Notes under the pieces: generated by a model
Seen by the model: only the letters and a program-made list of their open reading frames with translations
Databases searched by the model: none
What the model was told of the DNA's origin: nothing
Program-made: the position numbers and the translations under genes
Part shown: in pieces, positions 12,931-54,367 of the stretch
Position numbering within the stretch: position 1 is the stretch's first letter
How the letters are laid out: each line of letters begins with the position of its first letter
Sequence record: OR192075.1
DNA: 64,000 bases
Direction: 5' to 3' (one strand)
Source: Escherichia phage MIZ6

Positions 12931-12959
12931 GTTGTCCTCTCGTTGTTTTCGATGTGAGC

Positions 12960-12988
12960 ATTATACATTAGCTAATCATGTTGTCAAC
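12960..12988 (-). promoter_or_regulatory. sigma70-like early promoter (cassette with terminator 13005-13024)
   Basis: -35 TTGACA 12983-12988, 17-bp spacer, -10 TATAAT 12960-12965. Confidence 0.6.
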
Positions 12989-13004
12989 ACCCCAAAACGA
13001 AAAA

Positions 13005-13024
13005 GCCGACCCTTTCGGATCGGC
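13005..13024 (-). terminator. rho-independent terminator hairpin after nrdD
   Basis: GCCGA-CCCTTTCGGA-TCGGC flanked by A/T runs. Confidence 0.55.
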
Positions 13025-21876: not shown

Positions 21877-22117
21877 AGTTTACCCATTCAACAAGATCTT
21901 TACCCAACTCGAAAGCCCATTCTCGGTCTTGCTTTACGTTTTGTAGGTATGGACTTTCTGACACTCTACGAAGTGATGTTGTCGTAACAAGAATGATCTC
22001 AGGAATGGTCGGATGTTCTTTTCCATATACAATAGGACGCGAGTCACTATCAATACCTTGTAAGAAGGTGTATCCTGAATCACTTAGAATCATATACTTT
22101 TTCATTTCACACATCAC
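21776..22117 (-). CDS. hypothetical protein
   Basis: 113-aa ORF. Confidence 0.45.
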   Translation of the reverse strand: MMCEMKKYMILSDSGYTFLQGIDSDSRPIVYGKEHPTIPEIILVTTTSLRRVSESPYLQNVKQDREWAFELGKDLVEWVNCEDKNQRNHERKIARIVQRRKLDEIKNRILQSM

Positions 22118-22371
22118 AGTTTCCTCAACCAGTTATTAAAGCGAGCAAACCATGACGCTTTTCGTGCTTCTTTTACTTTATGTGCACGAAAACCACTGAA
22201 ACACCATTCATAATCATCACCGAAACATGATTCAACAGGAACACCCGCATTTCGTAGTTCTCTGGTCTTTATCATGAATCCTTGACATAAGGGGCGACCT
22301 TCAACAATGATAGGAAGTTTAACTTTTTCCATGAAAGTATACCCAGCACGGTCAATAATTTCAATTTTCAT
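22114..22371 (-). CDS. hypothetical protein
   Basis: 85-aa ORF. Confidence 0.45.
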   Translation of the reverse strand: MKIEIIDRAGYTFMEKVKLPIIVEGRPLCQGFMIKTRELRNAGVPVESCFGDDYEWCFSGFRAHKVKEARKASWFARFNNWLRKL

Positions 22372-23585: not shown

Positions 23586-23613
23586 ATTATAGCATTGTGA
23601 TTATCTTTGTCAA
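23586..23613 (-). promoter_or_regulatory. sigma70-like early promoter (cassette with terminator 23631-23650)
   Basis: -35 TTGACA 23608-23613, 16-bp spacer, -10 TATAAT 23586-23591. Confidence 0.55.
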
Positions 23614-23630
23614 CACCCAAAAACAAAAAA

Positions 23631-23650
23631 GGCTACCCCGAAGGATAGCC
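23631..23650 (-). terminator. terminator hairpin
   Basis: GGCTACC-CCGAAGG-ATAGCC followed by T-run on minus strand. Confidence 0.5.
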
Positions 23651-23657
23651 CATAAAA

Positions 23658-24443
23658 TTACACGCGAGCACCGTAGATCGTGCCTACTTTATCCCAGCGA
23701 GGGGCATTACCAGTAACAGCTTTACCCGCAGCACCACCAGAGTGAACAGTTCCTCCAGTACCACCTTTAATATATGAAGATTTGCCAGCAGCTCCCAAAT
23801 CTCCACCATCTCCTCCATAATGAACCCCAGAAACAGTGCCTTTACCTGGGGCAGAAATTGTACCAGCAGATGCTGCCGCTGCGCCGCCTCCTGCCGCACC
23901 CGCAGCACCAAATGGACGGCCTCCACCGCCGCCAAATTTCATATCCATTTGAGGGAAAGGATTGTATCTAGCACCAGCACCGCCACCACCGCCACCACCA
24001 ATAATACCATTATTGTTTATTCTTAAACGAGTTCCAATTCCGTTATTTATTGCATTTCCTCCTGCTCCACCAGCAGAGTTACTTCCGCCATTTCCTCCAC
24101 GACCTAATACATGAACACCAGAGTTAATAATGAGTGTTACATATTCGTTTGTCAGTGAGCTAGGGAAATCAAGACAAGGAACGCCAGTAGATTGGGAAAC
24201 AATATTACCCGTGATAGTAATTACTACCGGAGTAGATCCTTGTGCTTTCATCCAGTTAATAAGAGTGTCTTTATTGTAAGAGTTACTAGCACCAATGCTA
24301 TAATGAATCTCTTTAGAGCGTCCGACCATTGCCGACATATACGCCGGACGACCTAAGCGAACAGCTTGCATTGCGGCGCTCATCCACCGTTGACCAGTCT
24401 CGGACACAGCAGATGATCCTACCCATCCAGAAGATATTGCCAT
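23658..24443 (-). CDS. glycine/alanine-rich low-complexity protein with ~110-aa N-terminal globular region
   Basis: 261 aa; runs GGGGGGGAGA, FGGGGGRPFGAAGAAGGGAAAA, GGDGGDLGAAG; GAGGAAA RBS. Confidence 0.6.
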   Translation of the reverse strand: MAISSGWVGSSAVSETGQRWMSAAMQAVRLGRPAYMSAMVGRSKEIHYSIGASNSYNKDTLINWMKAQGSTPVVITITGNIVSQSTGVPCLDFPSSLTNEYVTLIINSGVHVLGRGGNGGSNSAGGAGGNAINNGIGTRLRINNNGIIGGGGGGGAGARYNPFPQMDMKFGGGGGRPFGAAGAAGGGAAAASAGTISAPGKGTVSGVHYGGDGGDLGAAGKSSYIKGGTGGTVHSGGAAGKAVTGNAPRWDKVGTIYGARV

Positions 24444-24463
24444 AAAATTTCCTCACAAGAAAA

Positions 24464-24479
24464 GCCCCAATTAAGGGGC
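24464..24479 (-). terminator. terminator hairpin upstream of Gly-rich gene
   Basis: GCCCC-AATTAA-GGGGC followed by TTTTCTT on minus strand. Confidence 0.5.
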
Positions 24480-24497
24480 ATTGATTGATAATATTAC

Positions 24498-24719
24498 TTA
24501 GATGACCTCTGCTTCACCATTCAGGAAGAAAGACCATGTTTTGTTAGGATAGCGAAGCGCCCATGATTCAGCGGTTTTAACACCAGATTCGAACAATTGA
24601 CGGCTGGTTACTTTAGCCATACCATCTTCGATGGCAACGTTTTCAATAATCATCGGGTACTTAGCGCCACGCATGAAACCGAAGCCAGCGGAAGATTTGA
24701 TAATTTTAACCGTTGCCAT
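24498..24719 (-). CDS. hypothetical protein
   Basis: 73-aa ORF. Confidence 0.45.
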   Translation of the reverse strand: MATVKIIKSSAGFGFMRGAKYPMIIENVAIEDGMAKVTSRQLFESGVKTAESWALRYPNKTWSFFLNGEAEVI

Positions 24720-24760: not shown

Positions 24761-24789
24761 ATTATGCAATAACACCGGAACGCTGTCAA
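24761..24789 (-). promoter_or_regulatory. sigma70-like early promoter
   Basis: -35 TTGACA 24784-24789, 17-bp spacer, -10 CATAAT 24761-24766; conserved CATCGAAACGAGA leader. Confidence 0.55.
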
Positions 24790-26002: not shown

Positions 26003-26031
26003 ATTATGCTATACCCTATTCCGGTTGTCAA
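26003..26031 (-). promoter_or_regulatory. sigma70-like early promoter (cassette with terminator 26047-26068)
   Basis: -35 TTGACA 26026-26031, 17-bp spacer, -10 CATAAT 26003-26008. Confidence 0.55.
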
Positions 26032-26046
26032 CACCTAAAAACGAAA

Positions 26047-26068
26047 AAGCCACCCTTTCGGATGGCTT
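26047..26068. terminator. terminator hairpin flanked by A-run and T-run (either strand)
   Basis: AAAAAGCCACCCTTTCGGATGGCTTTTT. Confidence 0.55.
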
Positions 26069-26301
26069 TTTGATTATATTTTATTCACGTCCATTTGTAT
26101 AGTAGTGTTTGAATCGACCTTTGCTAAACTAGTTAAACATAGTAACCAATTCACCATCCCTTTCCAATGATAACACTTCCTCGTCTTAGACGGGTCTTCT
26201 GATTCGGCAGTAATTGAACACGCGAAAGTATGAGGAAGCCAAATAGTTGTGTTGATGCTAGTATTCTTTTACTTCTGGTATGTATCCCAATGTGACTAAC
26301 A

Positions 26302-26989: not shown

Positions 26990-27057
26990 AAGTCATTCCC
27001 CCAGATTAAAAATATTCAGTTATATTTATAATCTGGGGCTTTATTTATGATTAACTC

Positions 27058-38958: not shown

Positions 38959-38987
38959 ATTATGCTATAGTCGTTTATGGTTGTCAA
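38959..38987 (-). promoter_or_regulatory. sigma70-like early promoter (cassette with terminator 39006-39024)
   Basis: -35 TTGACA 38982-38987, 17-bp spacer, -10 CATAAT 38959-38964. Confidence 0.55.
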
Positions 38988-39005
38988 CACATAAAAACAA
39001 AAAAA

Positions 39006-39024
39006 CCCCGAAAATTTTTCGGGG
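39006..39024. terminator. terminator hairpin after 57B-like gene
   Basis: AAAAAAACCCCGAAAATTTTTCGGGGTAT. Confidence 0.55.
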
Positions 39025-39031
39025 TATAGAA

Positions 39032-39502
39032 TTACAGTTTGGTCGTCCACTCCAGGTCTAGATCTTCGACATATTCATGAGATCGGACAATCTCTAAATC
39101 GAACTCTAGGTCAGTGCCAAATTTACGCGCACCAACATCATAAGAAAGCGTGATATGCGGTACATATTCAGGATAATCCCACGTCGCACCTAAAGCAGTT
39201 CCGATATCGTGTCTGAATTGCATGTAGTCGCTTTCAAATGCCAACACAAGCGCATTAGTACCGGATTGAGTTTCAAACACTTTCAGATGGCATAGAGAGC
39301 CTAAAAACTTTTCACCCTCTTCTGGGATAAACGGAACATAGACACGAGAATATAAGATAGTGCTATGCAGTTTATCACGAGGAACGGCATTAGGCAGATC
39401 GTAGAACTCCTGCAATTTTTCAATGCGGTCTAGTGTATCCTCAGTGAATTTAACAGCCGCATATGTACCTTTAACGGATTCTCGAAACGGGGTCATAATC
39501 AA
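39032..39502 (-). CDS. 57B: 2H-phosphoesterase-fold protein at T4 57B position (Acb1-like anti-CBASS candidate)
   Basis: 156 aa; two H-x-T motifs (HSTIL ~aa46, HITLS ~aa116); sits immediately downstream of 57A/gene 1 as T4 57B does. Confidence 0.55.
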   Translation of the reverse strand: MIMTPFRESVKGTYAAVKFTEDTLDRIEKLQEFYDLPNAVPRDKLHSTILYSRVYVPFIPEEGEKFLGSLCHLKVFETQSGTNALVLAFESDYMQFRHDIGTALGATWDYPEYVPHITLSYDVGARKFGTDLEFDLEIVRSHEYVEDLDLEWTTKL

Positions 39503-39765
39503 GCCTCCGTGATCAGTTCTACTTCCTCTTTAGCGTCTTCCGCTGCTTCGTCTTTAGGGAGAAGTGCTTTCACTTCTTCGACAATAGCATCAAGGGAAAC
39601 AGTGCCGTTTTCGTCTGGCTGAATACCCAGAATGCGTACCAGTTCCATCAATACACGCTCACGATCTTTCAGTTGGCCTTCTAAGAATGCGGCCTTTTCT
39701 TGAGTGTCAAACAGACGTACTTTCAGGACATTAATCATTTGTTCATGCTGATTGGACATATTCAC
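39499..39765 (-). CDS. 57A: gp57A-like tail fiber chaperone
   Basis: 88 aa acidic coiled-coil protein adjacent to gene 1; synteny. Confidence 0.55.
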   Translation of the reverse strand: MNMSNQHEQMINVLKVRLFDTQEKAAFLEGQLKDRERVLMELVRILGIQPDENGTVSLDAIVEEVKALLPKDEAAEDAKEEVELITEA

Positions 39766-42362: not shown

Positions 42363-42836
42363 CTATTTGTTAAGCCCTTTAAAGCCAAACACTTTCTTTA
42401 ATGCATGTTCGGTTATGATCTTAAACTCCATGTTATGCTTTTGGCATAATTTCACGGCAGCTAACCATTTTTCAGTATTTTTTGTGTATGTCCATACTTC
42501 ATGCATATATCGTTGCTTTGTCTTCGCGGTCATTCTTTTTGGCTTTTCCGGTGGCCTTGTCTCTTTAGCTGGTTTAACTTCCCATAAATGCTCCTTGCCA
42601 TCATCAAACTTAACGTAAAAATCCATAAAGTATCTGTGTCTTTTTCCGTCGGTTGATGACTCATAAGGAATTACTACGGTCTCAGATCCCCATTTTGCAA
42701 CTCTAGGATTGCGGTCTAAAAATTTCATTATATGTAATTCCCAACTTGACCTGTAGACGATTTTTTTCAGGTCGCCTTTATACTTCTCAGGATTTTCAGG
42801 TCTATATTTACCCTTATATGTGTTGCAATTACCCAT
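42363..42836 (-). CDS. 4: gp4 head completion protein
   Basis: 157 aa; ..NPEKYKGDLKKIVYRSSWELHIMKFLDRNPRVAKWGSETVVIPY.. resembles T4 gp4. Confidence 0.85.
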   Translation of the reverse strand: MGNCNTYKGKYRPENPEKYKGDLKKIVYRSSWELHIMKFLDRNPRVAKWGSETVVIPYESSTDGKRHRYFMDFYVKFDDGKEHLWEVKPAKETRPPEKPKRMTAKTKQRYMHEVWTYTKNTEKWLAAVKLCQKHNMEFKIITEHALKKVFGFKGLNK

Positions 42837-43531
42837 TATACCACCTTCTTCTTGCAGTTGTCACCATGCCATCTAACATAATTTCCCTGATTGGCTGTTT
42901 TTCCACAATGAGGACAGGTGAAATACGGACGGGACTTTGACAATTCACTATATTTTTGTTTCATTTCTGGTGTGTTATGAATACGTTTCCATTTCTCTAC
43001 GTTTTCTTGTGACAACTTTCTACCCTTACCCGCTTTAGAGATGTTGTCTCTCCATTCTTGTGTAATTTCTCTTGACGCAATATTTCTTTTATGTTCTTCT
43101 GTAAACACTCTACCTTTTAATGAAGCAGATAATTTCTGTCGATGTTCCTCAGACAATTTAATTCCTTTTCTCTTTCCTTTAGTTGCTTCTGATATTCTGC
43201 GTCTAGTCTCTTCGGATCTTTTTCTTCCTGTATGAAATTTTCTTGAAGTCTCGACCGCAAGTTTTCTTACCCACTCAAATTGTTTATTGTTATAGTTGGT
43301 AGACCCCATCAATATTTTCGCCGCATGTACAACTCCGTGATGTGTTGGATGCATTTTTGCTAAAAGTTGATGAGCAACAAAATGTTCAGACCCCGTTAAC
43401 TCCACTATATTTTCTGGACTATCATCGCCTCCCATACAACGAGGAATAATATGATGTTTTTCTTTATATCCTTCAAGCGTTCTATGCTTTGCGCGTTCAA
43501 TTAATCGATCATAATGTTTTTGATAGTCCAT
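42836..43531 (-). CDS. free-standing HNH homing endonuclease with NUMOD-type DNA-binding repeats
   Basis: 231 aa; HHIIPRCMGGDDSPENIVELTGSEHFVAHQ HNH motif; repeated SEExRRxISxxxKGK units; C-terminal CPHCG zinc ribbon; inserted between gp4 and gp53. Confidence 0.8.
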   Translation of the reverse strand: MDYQKHYDRLIERAKHRTLEGYKEKHHIIPRCMGGDDSPENIVELTGSEHFVAHQLLAKMHPTHHGVVHAAKILMGSTNYNNKQFEWVRKLAVETSRKFHTGRKRSEETRRRISEATKGKRKGIKLSEEHRQKLSASLKGRVFTEEHKRNIASREITQEWRDNISKAGKGRKLSQENVEKWKRIHNTPEMKQKYSELSKSRPYFTCPHCGKTANQGNYVRWHGDNCKKKVV

Positions 43532-44152: not shown

Positions 44153-45952
44153 ATGCTAATGTTTAATAACTCCGTTAAATGGTTTACCGGAATTGTAGAA
44201 AACAGGGAAGACCCATTAATGCTGGGGCGTGTTCAGGTTAGGATTCATGGTATACATCCCTCGCTATCCGCACACGGTGACATTCAAGGTCTTCCAACCG
44301 AAGATCTATTATGGATTACGCCAGTACAAGATATTACAAGCGCGGCGATCTCCGGTATAGGTCAAAGCCCTACTGGTATTGTTGAAGGTTCAATGGTATT
44401 TGGTTTGGCTTTAGATGAACGTTATTTAAACTGCGTTATTCTGGGTACTATTGCCGGACAATATACAGAGAAACCACTCACTACAGAGGGTTTTTGTGAC
44501 CCTTCTGGTGCATATCCTCGTTATATTGGTAATGATGTTAATATTCTTGCTCGTGGCGGTATTAACCCAGAAACCGGACAAACAACAAAACCTGATAGTG
44601 TCTATATTCGAGATGAAAACACTGGAGTTGCAGTAAATCCAGACGACGAGCCATTAGACCAAATTCCGGTTGATGATAATCCTGATTTTACAATAGAAAA
44701 AATGCTGCGGGGCGATGAGGGATATCGCGAGAAATGGTATCTTGATTCAGAAGGATATCCGACAATAGGCATCGGGCATTTGATCATTTATAAGAAAACC
44801 AGTGATCTTGGTATTATCAATAATGAACTTTCTAAGCTGGTAGGGCGTGAAGTTACAAACGGAAGACTTACCGCCGAAGAAGTTAGTAAAGTATTTGCCG
44901 ACGATATAGAAAAGACTCGTCGTGATATGCGCAAACATCCACGAATTGCACCTGTCTATAATAAATGTAATGCCTCTCGTCGCATGGCATTAGAAAATAT
45001 GGCGTTTCAAATGGGTGTTGGTGGATTGGGTAAATTTAAGAATAGTCTTGCTGCGATGTTAGCGGAAGAATGGAAACAAGCCTATGATGGATTACGTCAA
45101 TCTGTATGGGCTAACCAAACTCCAGGACGCTCCAGCCGTGTTTCTAAAATTATTTTAACTGGTAACTTAGAATCATATGGCGTAATTGCTCCAAAGAAAG
45201 AGGAATCAATTTCTGATGATCCGCGAGCACGTTTAAGAAATGCCCGTATTGCGGCCTATAAGACGCAGAGAGCAGAAGAAGACCCAGAAGCACCGTTTAC
45301 CCCACAAGACACACGAATCATGTTTAAAGAGCCTAAGAGTTCGTATTCTGCAAGGTATCCATATAACCATGTGTACGAGTCAGAGAGCGGTCATATTATC
45401 GAGATTGATGATACTCCTTCTCATGAGCGATATCATCGTAAACATCCTTCTGGTACATTTGAAGAAACCAGACCGGACGGAACGAGGGTAGAAAAGATTG
45501 AAGGCGATGATTATCTGATCGTTAAACAAGGCCGGAAAGTAAACGTCAAGGGTAATTTGCAAGTTGTTGTTGAAGGTGACGCGCAAGTTTATTATATGGG
45601 TAATGTGATGCAAACCGTTGATGGTAACGTCACTGAATTTATTCGTGGCAATGTTAATCAGACCGTTGAAGGTACTGCTAACATGCATGTTGTTGGTGAT
45701 GTTATCGCACAGCTTGACGCTAATTTGACGGCTAACGTCAAGGGTAATGCTGAATTAATGATCGAGGGTAACACTACCGAAACAATTAAAGGTAACTATG
45801 ATTTAACCGTTGAGGGTAATTTTAATATGACAGTCAATGGCACTAAATCAGATCAGGTTAATGGTGACTGGTCCCGTAATTGTGGTGCAAGCGTTAAAGA
45901 TATTGCATCTGGTACAGTTAAAATTGATGGTAGCCGTATTGATCTTGGGTGA
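44153..45952 (+). CDS. 5: gp5 baseplate hub / tail-associated lysozyme with C-terminal beta-helix
   Basis: 599 aa; lysozyme motif DSEGYPTIGIGHLI; C-terminal VxGxxxxx repeats. Confidence 0.9.
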   Translation: MLMFNNSVKWFTGIVENREDPLMLGRVQVRIHGIHPSLSAHGDIQGLPTEDLLWITPVQDITSAAISGIGQSPTGIVEGSMVFGLALDERYLNCVILGTIAGQYTEKPLTTEGFCDPSGAYPRYIGNDVNILARGGINPETGQTTKPDSVYIRDENTGVAVNPDDEPLDQIPVDDNPDFTIEKMLRGDEGYREKWYLDSEGYPTIGIGHLIIYKKTSDLGIINNELSKLVGREVTNGRLTAEEVSKVFADDIEKTRRDMRKHPRIAPVYNKCNASRRMALENMAFQMGVGGLGKFKNSLAAMLAEEWKQAYDGLRQSVWANQTPGRSSRVSKIILTGNLESYGVIAPKKEESISDDPRARLRNARIAAYKTQRAEEDPEAPFTPQDTRIMFKEPKSSYSARYPYNHVYESESGHIIEIDDTPSHERYHRKHPSGTFEETRPDGTRVEKIEGDDYLIVKQGRKVNVKGNLQVVVEGDAQVYYMGNVMQTVDGNVTEFIRGNVNQTVEGTANMHVVGDVIAQLDANLTANVKGNAELMIEGNTTETIKGNYDLTVEGNFNMTVNGTKSDQVNGDWSRNCGASVKDIASGTVKIDGSRIDLG

Positions 45953-45960
45953 GGTAACTA

Positions 45961-46527
45961 ATGGTTGAAATTCTTCCGATGAGTTCAAAATTGGAGGATA
46001 TCAGCGAGCGAGAAATCTTTGAGGTGGTGTTCTCTTATAAAGCAACGCCACCGGATGCAAATACCACATACACGATTAAAGAGTTTAAGATCAGCGAGTA
46101 TCGCCCTAATAAGGGCGTTACCGTTGAAGAAACTAAAATATCTGGTGAGTATCGGGATAGTTTTTCGCTTGGCGCGGATTCTCTTAAATATATAACGAAA
46201 GATAGAATTAAAAAATCTGCCGGAAGTTTTGATGATTTACCAGATCCAACTACCGCAGATCTATATTATTTTAACGCTCCTACACGTCTACAGGAGGTTT
46301 ATACTTATAAAGTCACCCTAACCTATATCCAATCTGTTTCAGAGTCTTCTGGTGGTTCTGGTGAAGGAAATAGTGGTGGTTCCAATAGCCGAGAGGGTGC
46401 TGGTGAAACTAATCCGCCTCCGGTAGTAACCGAACACACAATAGAGAAAGTTTATACTCAAACCGTTTTTGGAAATTGGGATGTGTGGGCGCAGCAACTA
46501 AGAGATTATGTACATAGGGGTGTTTAA
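45961..46527 (+). CDS. hypothetical protein (T4 5.1 position)
   Basis: 188-aa ORF between gp5 and PAAR-like gene. Confidence 0.55.
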
Positions 46528-46820
46528 TGGCTGGATTATCCTACGATAACGCTAAAACTACAGGGCACGGAAACTACCCACCTACGGTAATTAATGCAAC
46601 TCAATCTAAGGTATTTGTTGAGGGTATCCCTGTATTAGTCGAAGGAGACCCAATTACACCACACACAAAAACAACAAAGCCTTATGATACACACGGGGGA
46701 ACTACGGTCGCCAGTACCCCGAAAGTATTTGTTACCGGAAAGAAAGCAATTCAAATGGCAGATCGTATTAGCTGTGGCGATACCGTCGCTATGGCATCAC
46801 CGAAGGTATTCATAAAATGA
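46527..46820 (+). CDS. 5.4: gp5.4-like PAAR-repeat spike tip protein
   Basis: 97 aa; ..[18 protein letters not shown].. and ..[15 protein letters not shown].. Confidence 0.65.
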
Positions 46821-48721
46821 CAAAGCAAAAGATTACACAAATTCCTGATATTTTTAATGCTGCTACATTCGATGAAATTAAAAGCGCATTAACAGACTGG
46901 ATGAGAAACCAGGAAGAATTTAAAGATTTTGATTTTAATGGTGCTGGTATTAACGTATTGATGGACTTGCTCGCATATAACACTCTGTATATTCAGCAAT
47001 TCGCTAACGCCGCGCTATATGAATCTTTTATCAGAACGGCAATTAAGCGTAGTTCAGTTGTTCAAGCCGCGCAAGATTTAGGATATTTGCCAGCAAGTAA
47101 AACTAGTGCATCGACTACAATTATGTTGCACGTAACACATCCGCGAAATCCGGCAAGTATTCGAATCCCACGAGGAACTAAATTTATTGCAAGTGTGGAT
47201 CGCCAGACTTCTTACCCGTTTGTGACTACAGAAGACGTTGTGAGCGTTTTAGGTTCAAATGGTTTATATACGCCTATGCTTAAAGTCGCACAAGGTCGTA
47301 TTGTTCGTACAGAAATGTTATTTGATCCGAAGAAACAAATTCTGATCCGCGATCCTGATATTGACCGCGCTCAGGTTAAGTTGTGGGTAGATGGTGCTGA
47401 ATGGAAAGACTGGACGCGAGAAAGTATTGTTAATGCAACTGGCGCTAGTAATATTTTCTATATGCGTGAAACCGTAGACGGACATACTGAAATTTTCTTT
47501 GGTGAGGGTGAATCAACTTTATCTGCCGCTGGCGGTGCACTGGAAGCAAATTATATTGGTGGACTTAAGCCGTCAACTGGTGCTAATATTGTTATCGAAT
47601 ATATCAGCACTAAAGGCGCGGAAGCAAACGGTTCAGTTAATTTCACATACGCGGATACATTGGCATCAATTTCTATTGTTAAAATTATTGAGAATCCGAC
47701 AAATGATCGTGATTATGTCGGTGCAGATGGTGGTGGTGATCCTGAATCAATCGAACGTATCCGTGAACTTGCTCCGGTAATGCGTGAATCTCAGCGTCGT
47801 TGTGTGACTGCTTCCGACTATGAGGCTTTTGTGTCTAGCCGTTTTGGTAGTATTGTTCAGGCGGTACAATGTTTCACCGACCGAGAAAAACCGGGTTATG
47901 CTTTTGTTGCTGTTAAGCCTAAATCTGGCTTGCGCTTGACAACCGTTCAAAAAGAAGATATGCGGGATTATCTGGCAAAATATAACCTTGCCCCTATCAC
48001 GCCGAGCATCATTGACCCTAACTATCTGTATATTAAACAGAATATTAAAGTTTCCTATTCAATCAACGACTTGTCAGAATCAGAGCAGTGGTTGCGCGGT
48101 GCGGTTATTGATCAGATTGATGCATATTATACCGACGAAGTGGAAATTTTTAACCAGACCTTTAGTAAGTCTAAAATGCTTGCGCGTATTGACAAAGCTG
48201 ATGTATCTGTGATAGGTTCTAGTGCAGAAATCGAGATGGTGCGAGAGATCGACAACTTCTATAAAGCACCGATGGCTGGAATCAAGTTTTTAAACCAGTA
48301 TAAGAGCGGAATCAAGTCTAGTTCATTCAACTTCGAAAAGGACGACAAGCAATATCCAATCCATTATGTAAGTACAGAAATGAACAAAGAATCCGGTTTA
48401 GCTAAATTGCTGGTTGGACCTTTCCCTGTTGATTCTACAATCGCTTTACCGCACTATTCCGGCACTGATTTTGATAAAGAGGTTATTGACGGGGCGGACC
48501 TATACTTTGAGGTTGGAGAGGTTCAGCATTATGACGACCTTATTTCATGGGATCTGGGTAAACTGAATATCAATAGCGATCGCTTTACTGGTTCATATAT
48601 TGAGTTGACAGCTAAACCGATTGCTGATAACATCTTTACTAAAGACGGTTCTTTGATCGTGTTTGAAAACGATCTCCGTCCTCAGTACACAACTATTAGT
48701 CTGGAGGCAATTGCTCAATGA
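46817..48721 (+). CDS. 6: gp6 baseplate wedge protein
   Basis: 634 aa; ..[39 protein letters not shown].. resembles T4 gp6. Confidence 0.9.
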
Positions 48722-52792: not shown

Positions 52793-52807
52793 GTGTATGA
52801 TTTAAAA

Positions 52808-52827
52808 GCCAATTCGAGAGAGTTGGC
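52808..52827 (+). terminator. terminator hairpin after gp8
   Basis: GCCAATTC-GAGA-GAGTTGGC followed by TTTTT. Confidence 0.55.
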
Positions 52828-52844
52828 TTTTTCTATTTTGGGTG

Positions 52845-52872
52845 TTGACAATCTTGTCTGATAAGGTATAAT
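52845..52872 (+). promoter_or_regulatory. sigma70-like early-type promoter on plus strand, inside the late module
   Basis: -35 TTGACA 52845-52850, 16-bp spacer, -10 TATAAT 52867-52872; preceded by terminator 52808-52827; drives the three-gene MTase cassette. Confidence 0.6.
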
Positions 52873-52901
52873 GATCACATCTAAACAACGGAGGATAAAT
52901 T

Positions 52902-53159
52902 ATGGCACGTCGTAAATTTACAGATAATTGTGAAGCAATTCAGGTATCCCCTTGCGGTTGGGATGTGATCGCGAACGGTGAAAAGATCGGAGAGATCATC
53001 GATCATACTCATTCATCACTAGCCGATTACACCGATGAACTATGGGAGGGTATCAACTTCATGAATGACACTAAACGATTCAAGACTATCGACGAAGCTA
53101 TCTATTTTGTGTATAATCCAACTTTCGGTATGTGGGGTAATAGAAAATGGCACGCGTAA
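52902..53159 (+). CDS. hypothetical protein, first gene of inserted cassette
   Basis: 85 aa starting MARRKF; GGAGGA RBS; downstream of sigma70-like promoter. Confidence 0.55.
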   Translation: MARRKFTDNCEAIQVSPCGWDVIANGEKIGEIIDHTHSSLADYTDELWEGINFMNDTKRFKTIDEAIYFVYNPTFGMWGNRKWHA

Positions 53160-53479
53160 ATATTAAATTGCATTACACAATGAATAAAGCTAAGTTCCCA
53201 ATGCAAAAGCATTACTATGGTCTACGTGCACAAGATCCTAAACTCTATGGTACTCATTGGTTTTGTAAACATGATAACCAATGGCACACATACGAAGAAA
53301 TGCACGAGATGATGAAACAGGGTATTGAATTTAGTTATTCTAATTATGACCATCGTATAACTTGCATTCGAAAATTGAAACGATGGATTCGTAAGAATCC
53401 GCAATTTAAAAACTTTGTGTTCTTTATGTCTCATGTTTATTTGGGACATAGCGTTACCGTCACAGCAAAGGTTAAATAA
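53147..53479 (+). CDS. hypothetical protein, second gene of inserted cassette
   Basis: 110 aa starting MARVNI; overlaps neighbours. Confidence 0.55.
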   Translation: MARVNIKLHYTMNKAKFPMQKHYYGLRAQDPKLYGTHWFCKHDNQWHTYEEMHEMMKQGIEFSYSNYDHRITCIRKLKRWIRKNPQFKNFVFFMSHVYLGHSVTVTAKVK

Positions 53480-54318
53480 TGGCACGACTTTCTAAACAAG
53501 AACAAAAATTACACGATCGGGTGATGGAGTTGATTAATTCAGATCGCCCATTGACATATGAAGAAAAAGAATTTTGCTATAATAACTATCATGGCGATGG
53601 TCTAGGCGGTTCAGGTGCATTCTTTACCCCAGAAGGGCTTGCATGGGATTTTACCATCGATGCACATTGCACAGGAAAAGTATTAGATCTTTGTGCTGGG
53701 ATCGGTCGCTTATCTTTTTGTATGTTACATCGTTGTAAGCCAGAAAAGATCGTATGCGTCGAACTCAATCCAGAATTTGCGCGGATTGGCAAGAGACTAT
53801 TACCGGAGGCAGAATGGATCACCAGCGATGTATTCGAATTTGAGTCAAACGAAAAATTCGATGTGGTGATCAGCAATCCACCTTTCGGGAAAATCAATAC
53901 AACCAACACAAAGGATGTATTTGAGTACACTGGCGGCGAATTTGAATTTAAGGTTATGACATTAGGCCAGAAGTTTGCCGATGTTGGCTATTTTATTGTT
54001 CCTGTGGGTTCCGCTGGTTTTGCTTATTCCGGCAGACCTTATTATGACGGGACCATGAAGTCTAATAAATATCTAAAATGGAGCAAACAAACTGGTTTGG
54101 TGACTTATGCCGGATGTGGGATCGATACATCAATCTATCGCGATGAATGGCACAGTACCAACGTTTTAACAGAAGTGGTTGAGGTTCGGTATTACGAGAA
54201 AGAAGCCGTAGAAGCGCCTAAATCACGCCCTAACGAACAAATAGAAGAAAGTAAGGAGATTACCTTACCGAAACAGGAAAGCGAGTCTGGGACGCTCTCA
54301 GATTTGTTTGACATTTAA
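53479..54318 (+). CDS. N6-adenine-type (gamma-class) methyltransferase
   Basis: 279 aa; motif order AFFTP - VLDLCAGIG - VISNPPFG. Confidence 0.75.
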   Translation: MARLSKQEQKLHDRVMELINSDRPLTYEEKEFCYNNYHGDGLGGSGAFFTPEGLAWDFTIDAHCTGKVLDLCAGIGRLSFCMLHRCKPEKIVCVELNPEFARIGKRLLPEAEWITSDVFEFESNEKFDVVISNPPFGKINTTNTKDVFEYTGGEFEFKVMTLGQKFADVGYFIVPVGSAGFAYSGRPYYDGTMKSNKYLKWSKQTGLVTYAGCGIDTSIYRDEWHSTNVLTEVVEVRYYEKEAVEAPKSRPNEQIEESKEITLPKQESESGTLSDLFDI

Positions 54319-54359: not shown

Positions 54360-54367
54360 TATAAATA
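54360..54367 (+). promoter_or_regulatory. T4-type late promoter (TATAAATA) upstream of gp9
   Basis: TATAAATAATAC about 28 nt upstream of gp9 ATG, directly after terminator 54325-54342. Confidence 0.6.

Follow-up and report, generated by a model that had tools for sequence, protein, structure and literature searches.

A glycine-rich gene on the early-gene strand

We analysed a stretch of 64,000 nucleotides from Escherichia phage MIZ6 (OR192075.1), referred to below as the window. On its minus strand we found an open reading frame that starts with ATG and encodes 261 aa plus a stop codon (Table 1). Residues 1-113 have an ordinary composition with 8.8% Gly, and residues 114-261 contain 33.8% Gly, 14.9% Ala and 6.8% Asn. 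The overall Gly content of 23% is the highest among the 75 window ORFs of at least 100 aa (mean 5.9%, sd 3.1%). When the best 148-aa stretch of each of these ORFs was compared, the gene reached 33.8% Gly vs 18.2% in the runner-up. The Gly enrichment is far beyond chance. The original prediction had described a 261-aa protein with an ordinary N-terminal part followed by a Gly/Ala/Asn-rich part, and both the ORF and its composition agree with this description. The two glycine-rich strings quoted at that time were also found, GGGGGGGAGA at aa 149-158 and FGGGGGRPFGAAGAAGGGAAAASAG at aa 170-194.

Four further ORFs in alternative frames are nested within the gene. They had been regarded as spurious products of the low complexity, and this view holds up: the ORFs are present, and their boundaries are not conserved across alleles. 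Because these limits differ from one gp38 allele to another and the gp38 frame is unbroken in all of them, the four nested ORFs are by-products of stop-free GGN/GCN codon runs and not genes.

The locus lies on the early-gene strand, between the tk/rI and the nrdD/endonuclease VII (gene 49-type) regions. Its neighbours are small ORFs without known function, with near-consensus sigma70 promoters around them. One of these, the 73-aa ORF upstream of the gene, has an 85-aa paralogue at 22114-22371 on the same strand, also of PHROG 7345. We found no gene 37 in the window, whose plus-strand late block (44-64 kb) contains baseplate, fibritin and neck genes.

Table 1. Features of the gp38 locus and related signals in the window (positions in window coordinates; GRM, glycine-rich motif; HVS, hypervariable segment; PeSL, terminator-plus-promoter element)
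Feature	Position	Strand	Basis or remark
Gene 38, predicted long-tail-fibre adhesin gp38	23658..24443	-	ORF, Pfam, PHROG, PDB 6F45_D, Delraymugoa identity
Predicted N-terminal attachment domain, aa 1-40	24324..24443	-	Pfam PF21721
Predicted linker and first part of beta-helix domain, conserved, aa 41-113	24105..24323	-	S16 gp38 alignment
Predicted alternating GRMs and HVSs, aa 114-243	23715..24104	-	Gly/Ala runs, S16 alignment
Predicted C-terminal strand(s) returning to beta-helix, conserved, aa 244-261	23661..23714	-	S16 C-terminus alignment; 88-100% nt identity to GEC-3S/RB49
Putative receptor-specificity module, recombinant, aa 119-234	23742..24089	-	nt-identity bins vs Bas43
Nested alternative-frame ORFs (n=4)	23684-23935; 23774-23971; 23820-24026; 23962-24114	-; +; +; +	ORF list
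Shine-Dalgarno GAGG, 7 nt before gp38 ATG	24451..24454	-	sequence; invariant in four Krischviruses
Weak terminator-like hairpin GCCCC-TTAATT-GGGGC, then TTTTCTT	24464..24479	-	-11.2 kcal/mol; between 73-aa ORF and gp38
73-aa ORF, PHROG 7345	24498..24719	-	upstream of gp38, same apparent transcription unit
Sigma70-type promoter TTGACA-N17-CATAAT	24761..24789	-	11/12 match; nearest promoter-like site upstream of gp38
Strong intrinsic terminator, 9-bp stem, UUCG loop, U6	23630..23651	-	immediately after gp38 stop codon
Perfect sigma70 promoter TTGACA-N16-TATAAT with TG	23586..23613	-	12/12 match
PeSL elements	12950-13010; 23586-23651; 26003-26071; 38960-39030; 52800-52872	-; -; -; -; +	composite motif
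Nearest coding-strand late-promoter motif TATAAATA, serves rI	27023..27030	-	2.58 kb upstream of gp38

Homology of the product to T2/S16-type gp38 adhesins

To the product, Pfam assigned GP38 (PF05268, E = 1.1e-70), in which aa 45-261 cover model positions 1-218 of 218, and Gp38_N (PF21721, E = 3.9e-18), covered at model positions 1-40 of 40. PHROG 2056, 'tail fiber protein; host specificity', matched at 7.8e-100. In the PDB, gp38 of Salmonella phage S16 (6F45_D) aligned to aa 1-259 with E = 8.6e-49, and the second match was 9V85, a GFP-gp38 fusion (E = 3.6e-30). Homologues were found by tblastn in 795 phage records, nearly all of them from T-even relatives, and almost all of these records are annotated as adhesin or receptor-recognising protein.

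The gp38 DNA is 100% identical at the nucleotide level to that of Krischvirus MIZ2 and MIZ3, in which the locus and its neighbours are also alike, and 99.2-99.7% identical to that of Delraymugoa, Aragogtheria, kaaroe, FL38, W115 and FL37. The Delraymugoa (CPL00151) protein is 100% identical, its DNA being 99.7% identical with about 2 synonymous nucleotide differences. The gp38 proteins of MIZ2, MIZ3 and Delraymugoa show no difference of substance from the window gp38. The window comes from a Krischvirus, i.e. an RB49-like T-even relative, and its gp38 is a full member of the T2/S16-type adhesin family. We consider it very probable (about 96%) that the gene encodes the T2/S16-type gp38 long-tail-fibre adhesin of this Krischvirus, with the mechanism and the Tsx receptor described below.

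The likeness to glycine-rich motifs of phage adhesins, proposed earlier from the composition, is borne out by the GP38, PHROG 2056 and 6F45_D matches. A likeness to the translocation domains of colicins and microcins had been proposed alongside it and finds no support: Pfam, searched at E up to 1, returned GP38 and Gp38_N only and no colicin or microcin family. An early non-structural Gly-rich protein, for example one with a translocation or toxin domain of colicin or microcin type, would fit the composition and the position among sigma70-driven small ORFs, as well as the absence of a late promoter belonging to the gene itself. However, the adhesin domains account for the entire length, the identical protein occurs in a phage whose infection depends on Tsx, and the Gly runs would be structural polyglycine-II (PGII) motifs, not a disordered translocation domain. 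Homology to gp38 adhesins effectively refutes this reading, to which we give almost no probability.

Names in public records vary. The homologue is called 'tail assembly protein' or 'distal long tail fiber assembly catalyst' in GEC-3S (HE978309), JEP8, ELT4 and PHB13, and some other GenBank records label it 'hypothetical protein'. The 'assembly' labels would agree with a T4-type gp38, a chaperone or 'assembly catalyst' that aids gp37 folding and is not in the virion. The early-region location would suit a chaperone, and an annotated tail fibre chaperone gene (39499-39759) lies on the same strand. T4 gp38 has the same gene number as the S16/T2-type protein and is likewise linked in a general way to the distal tail fibre, but it is unrelated in sequence and acts as a folding chaperone outside the virion, the adhesin function of T4 residing in the gp37 C-terminus. 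The window product, by contrast, matches the adhesin family and a solved adhesin structure over its full length. Host-range mutations of RB49 map to gp38 (E230K, Y231S), exchange of gp38 in related phages switches receptor specificity, and the GenBank 'assembly' labels are names carried over from T4. A T4-type chaperone is thus highly improbable here.

The GEC-3S record NC_025425.1 also contains a 996-bp 'minus_10_signal' (45828-46823) that spans most of gp38. We rejected it as a promoter inside gp38, since its length is an evident coordinate error of the record.

Predicted domain architecture and fold of gp38

In most T-even-like phages, T4 excepted, the C-terminal chaperone domain of gp37 is shed, exposing a docking site, as is stated for RB49, and one gp38 monomer sits on each long tail fibre as a cap. 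The structure of S16 gp38 comprises a helical bundle at the N-terminus, with apex tryptophans that insert into gp37 pockets, a five-ring beta-helix, and a three-layer 'polyglycine sandwich' in which ten GRMs form polyglycine-II helices. The HVSs between the GRMs make the distal receptor-binding loops.

The attachment domain, the beta-helix and the GRM/HVS polyglycine sandwich of S16 gp38 have predicted counterparts in the window gp38, for which the sandwich fold is predicted by homology to 6F45. G149-G155 of the window protein aligned with S16 151-GGGGGGGG-158, the long poly-Gly helix 3, and most of the variability falls within aa 150-240, in the stretches that separate conserved Gly motifs. 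The S16 protein differs in its hypervariable loops, has a gap at the extra GGTGG-containing segment of the window gp38 (aa ~225-231), and has Trp as the third apex residue where the window gp38 has Tyr. AlphaFold2, run on the single gp38 sequence, gave an unusable model (pLDDT 34.4, pTM 0.25). Because the S16 structure shows the GRMs as a polyglycine-II sandwich, the 'low-complexity' region of gp38 would be highly ordered with a rare fold, and not disordered.

Within the attachment domain, W7 and W20 are conserved. Tyr35 (24339-24341, minus strand) occurs in all four Krischvirus gp38 alleles, and the aligned position is occupied by W35 in S16 and W37 in Bas43. From their placement in the 40-aa domain, we infer that W7, W20 and position 35 are the three gp37-docking apex tryptophan sites. 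Tyr35 may reflect co-adaptation with the Krischvirus gp37 tip.

By analogy with S16, the 40-residue helical N-terminal domain would plug onto the end of the trimeric gp37 fibre, and monomeric gp38 would cap the distal tip of each long tail fibre. A small beta-helix would be built from the middle and extreme C-terminal parts of gp38, and the GRMs of aa ~114-243 would pack as polyglycine-II helices in a three-layer sandwich. Between the GRMs, the short HVSs would loop out distally and make contact with the bacterial receptor.

Mosaic structure of the gp38 allele

The window, Brandy, GEC-3S and RB49 share 97-100% identity in the DNA that flanks gp38, and the window gp38 coding sequence is about 83% identical to that of GEC-3S. 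We compared gp38 with Bas43, GEC-3S and RB49 by nucleotide identity in 20-codon bins, and in protein-level bins as well. At aa 1-98 the nucleotide identity is 92-100% to GEC-3S and 62-82% to Bas43. The bins of the attachment domain (aa 1-40) are 100% identical to GEC-3S and RB49, with 62-67% nucleotide identity to Bas43. At aa 119-234 the identity to Bas43 is 87-100% (nt) and 93-100% (aa), and that to GEC-3S/RB49 is 46-77% (nt). The last gp38 codons are back to Krischvirus sequence. The junctions are located at aa ~99-118, before or into the first GRM, and at aa ~235-254, in the last GRM. According to the published model, GRM-coding DNA mediates swaps of specificity segments, and junctions in or next to GRMs fit this model.

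The allele is a recombinant, in which the attachment domain and flanks are those of a Krischvirus and the receptor module is common with Tequatrovirus Bas43. The module at aa 119-234 is common to Bas43 (TadeuszReichstein) and its relatives Kha5h, UFV13 and Kelasse. Bas43, however, belongs to another genus, and its gene 38 lies on the late strand at the canonical place, flanked by g37 and holin t; the attachment domain of its gp38 is 63-70% identical to that of the window gp38 and carries the third Trp.

We also observed that gp38 codons 1-7 (24423-24443, minus strand) read MAISSGW in the window and GEC-3S, and MAIKAGW in Brandy and RB49. These codons are a second small recombinant patch, the rest being Brandy-like (96.9% aa).

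Tsx as the predicted receptor

In a published genome-wide RB-TnSeq screen with Delraymugoa (CPL00151), tsx was the top-scoring gene, and Tsx was assigned as the primary and Kdo as the secondary receptor. The receptor of Bas43, a Tequatrovirus that shares the receptor module of the window, is Tsx. Because the window protein is identical to Delraymugoa gp38 and its receptor module is common with Tsx-using Bas43, the nucleoside channel Tsx is the predicted receptor of the window gp38. Brandy49, whose gp38 is 96.9% identical (aa) to the window gp38, was the sole RB49-like phage of its study independent of OmpA. The text of the 2025 paper names no receptor for FL37 and FL38 (99.2-99.6% nt identical).

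T6-type gp38 (RB6, RB14), the classical Tsx adhesin, is of the same family and, by the literature, has the same receptor, but it is about 52% identical to the window gp38. In view of this low identity, the window gp38 would represent a Tsx-binding subtype separate from the T6-type. A published Tsx predictor missed CPL00151 because its gp38 belongs to a Tsx-binding subtype different from the T6-type.

The displaced location of gene 38

In the canonical slot, which is usual but not universal, g38 stands directly after g37 and before holin t, and this is not the arrangement here. On the RB49 map, g34-g37 occupy 145-154.7 kb, with g37 itself at 151717-154656; a small ORF and holin t come next, and g38 lies at 45367-46143 on the minus strand, about 55 kb from g37. 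Displacement of g38 from g37 is the documented norm for RB49-like phages, and it was remarked for FL37 and FL38 too. Since host-range mutations map there, the displaced g38 is functional in RB49. The window gene occupies the same locus as RB49 g38, with identical flanks, hairpins and promoters, and the N-terminal 98 residues of the two proteins are identical except for codons 4-5. The proteins differ further along: RB49 gp38 has 77.7% overall identity to the window gp38, which drops to 37-53% in the HVS bins, and its receptors are OmpA and certain O antigens vs the predicted Tsx here.

The original prediction described the gene correctly as lying among early genes on the minus strand, but used this location as an argument against an adhesin. 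The argument does not stand, because displacement is documented in Krischvirus as the genus norm. In this genus the gene is placed some 55 kb away from g37, on the early-gene strand, and it would lie in a hyperplastic region bounded by PeSL elements.

We noted another tail fibre gene at an unusual position. The chaperone gene mentioned above, on the minus strand and named from the MIZ2 annotation, adjoins a dNMP kinase gene. Because it too is on the early-gene strand, gp38 is not the sole tail-fibre-related gene outside the late block. From its position, we take the chaperone to be gp57A-like.

Transcription signals around gene 38

The weak hairpin upstream of gp38 has 5 GC pairs and an interrupted T-run, and it is an annotated terminator in the GEC-3S record. 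The sigma70-type promoter upstream of the 73-aa ORF is invariant in four Krischviruses and annotated as a promoter in GEC-3S. Conservation upstream of the gene is uninformative on signals, as the Krischviruses compared share 97-100% identity throughout this region. Downstream of gp38, the strong terminator has a folding energy of -14.7 kcal/mol, a stability that none of 200 shuffles reached. Together with the perfect promoter behind it, this terminator forms a PeSL element, from which the next early unit starts. The PeSL-like composites consist of a stem-loop, a T-run, GGTG and TTGACA-N16/17-(T/C)ATAAT, and their T-run and promoter parts are nearly identical among the window elements. Such promoter-terminator cassettes were described for RB49 and phi1.

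The 106-nt gp38 leader folds no better than shuffled sequences (z = 0.17). In T4, the leader of the early transcript of the lysozyme gene e hides the ribosome-binding site (RBS); an RBS hidden in this way by the gp38 leader is ruled out by that value.

We found (A/T)ATAAATA, the late-promoter motif, ahead of gp53, gp9, gp3 and rI, at 26-33 nt from their start codons. The one serving rI is the nearest on the coding strand and corresponds to Pl:48756 of RB49, the only late promoter that Nolan et al. predicted near RB49 g38; they predicted none for g38 itself. Searches for TATAAATA, exact and with one mismatch, and for (A/T)ATAAATA detected no dedicated gp38 late promoter within 2.58 kb upstream on the coding strand. 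A late-promoter-like AATAAATA is present inside the gp38 CDS at 24044-24051 (minus strand, codons A-I-N-N), with no ORF downstream, and is most likely a chance match. The original prediction had set a known virion adhesin with late expression against its own reading: the adhesin family is what we found, and no late promoter directly serving the gene is seen in the sequence.

Behind gp8 stands the plus-strand PeSL element, whose early-type promoter (52845) is perfect; after it come two small ORFs and the gene for a 279-aa DNA methyltransferase (53479-54318, plus strand; named from the MIZ2 annotation). The next late promoter, at 54360, restarts gp9. As judged from these signals, 52800-54318 on the plus strand would be an early-type cassette within the late baseplate block, a mirror image of the gp38 case. 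Separately, a 231-aa ORF at 42836-43531 (minus strand), a homing endonuclease in the MIZ2 annotation, lies between a gp4-like head-completion gene and the divergent gp53 late promoter.

Expression timing of gp38

Transcription of gp38 probably occurs by read-through, from the sigma70-type promoter at 24789 via the weak hairpin, from the rI late promoter, or from both. We looked in the literature for transcriptome or expression data of Krischvirus and found none.

As a refinement of the adhesin identity, most gp38 could be synthesised early, with transcription from the sigma70-type promoters at 26031 and 24789, and kept in store until the fibres are assembled. Between the promoter at 24789-24761 and the gene there are only the 73-aa ORF and the weak hairpin (5 bp, -11.2 kcal/mol), and the sole upstream late promoter is 2.6 kb away, behind a strong terminator (26071-26044, -17.8 kcal/mol). 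The lack of a predicted late promoter for RB49 g38 (Nolan et al.) points the same way, as does the lack of MotA and of middle promoters in RB49, and six copies per virion suffice. On the other hand, late transcripts may read through, T4-type late promoters are short so that variants may escape a motif search, and structural genes of T-even phages are normally late. Weighing these points, we regard mainly early synthesis as plausible but somewhat doubtful. The broader proposal, in which the displaced adhesin gene no longer belongs to the late regulon but stands last in a PeSL-bounded cassette and is transcribed mainly from early sigma70-type promoters through a leaky hairpin, is more tentative still, and we consider it rather unlikely.

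Implications for T-even-like phages

The family, structure, receptor and displaced position of gp38 are all published, and the protein is not of a new type. The mosaic goes slightly beyond the literature, though known in kind, and so does the missing dedicated late promoter.

Since the host range of most T-even-like phages is determined mainly by gp38, the identity of the allele tells the receptor, and identification of allele and receptor is of use in the design of phage-therapy cocktails and in receptor prediction. The mosaic is a clear inter-genus exchange of receptor modules, the gp38 genes concerned occupying non-homologous loci. An early-type cassette that holds a structural gene with no late promoter bears on gene timing in phages without a middle mode. 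If gp38 does stand outside the late regulon, a host-range determinant of the virion would be made early and shuffled like the surrounding accessory early genes, and the receptor module exchanged between genera would then be one result of such mobility.
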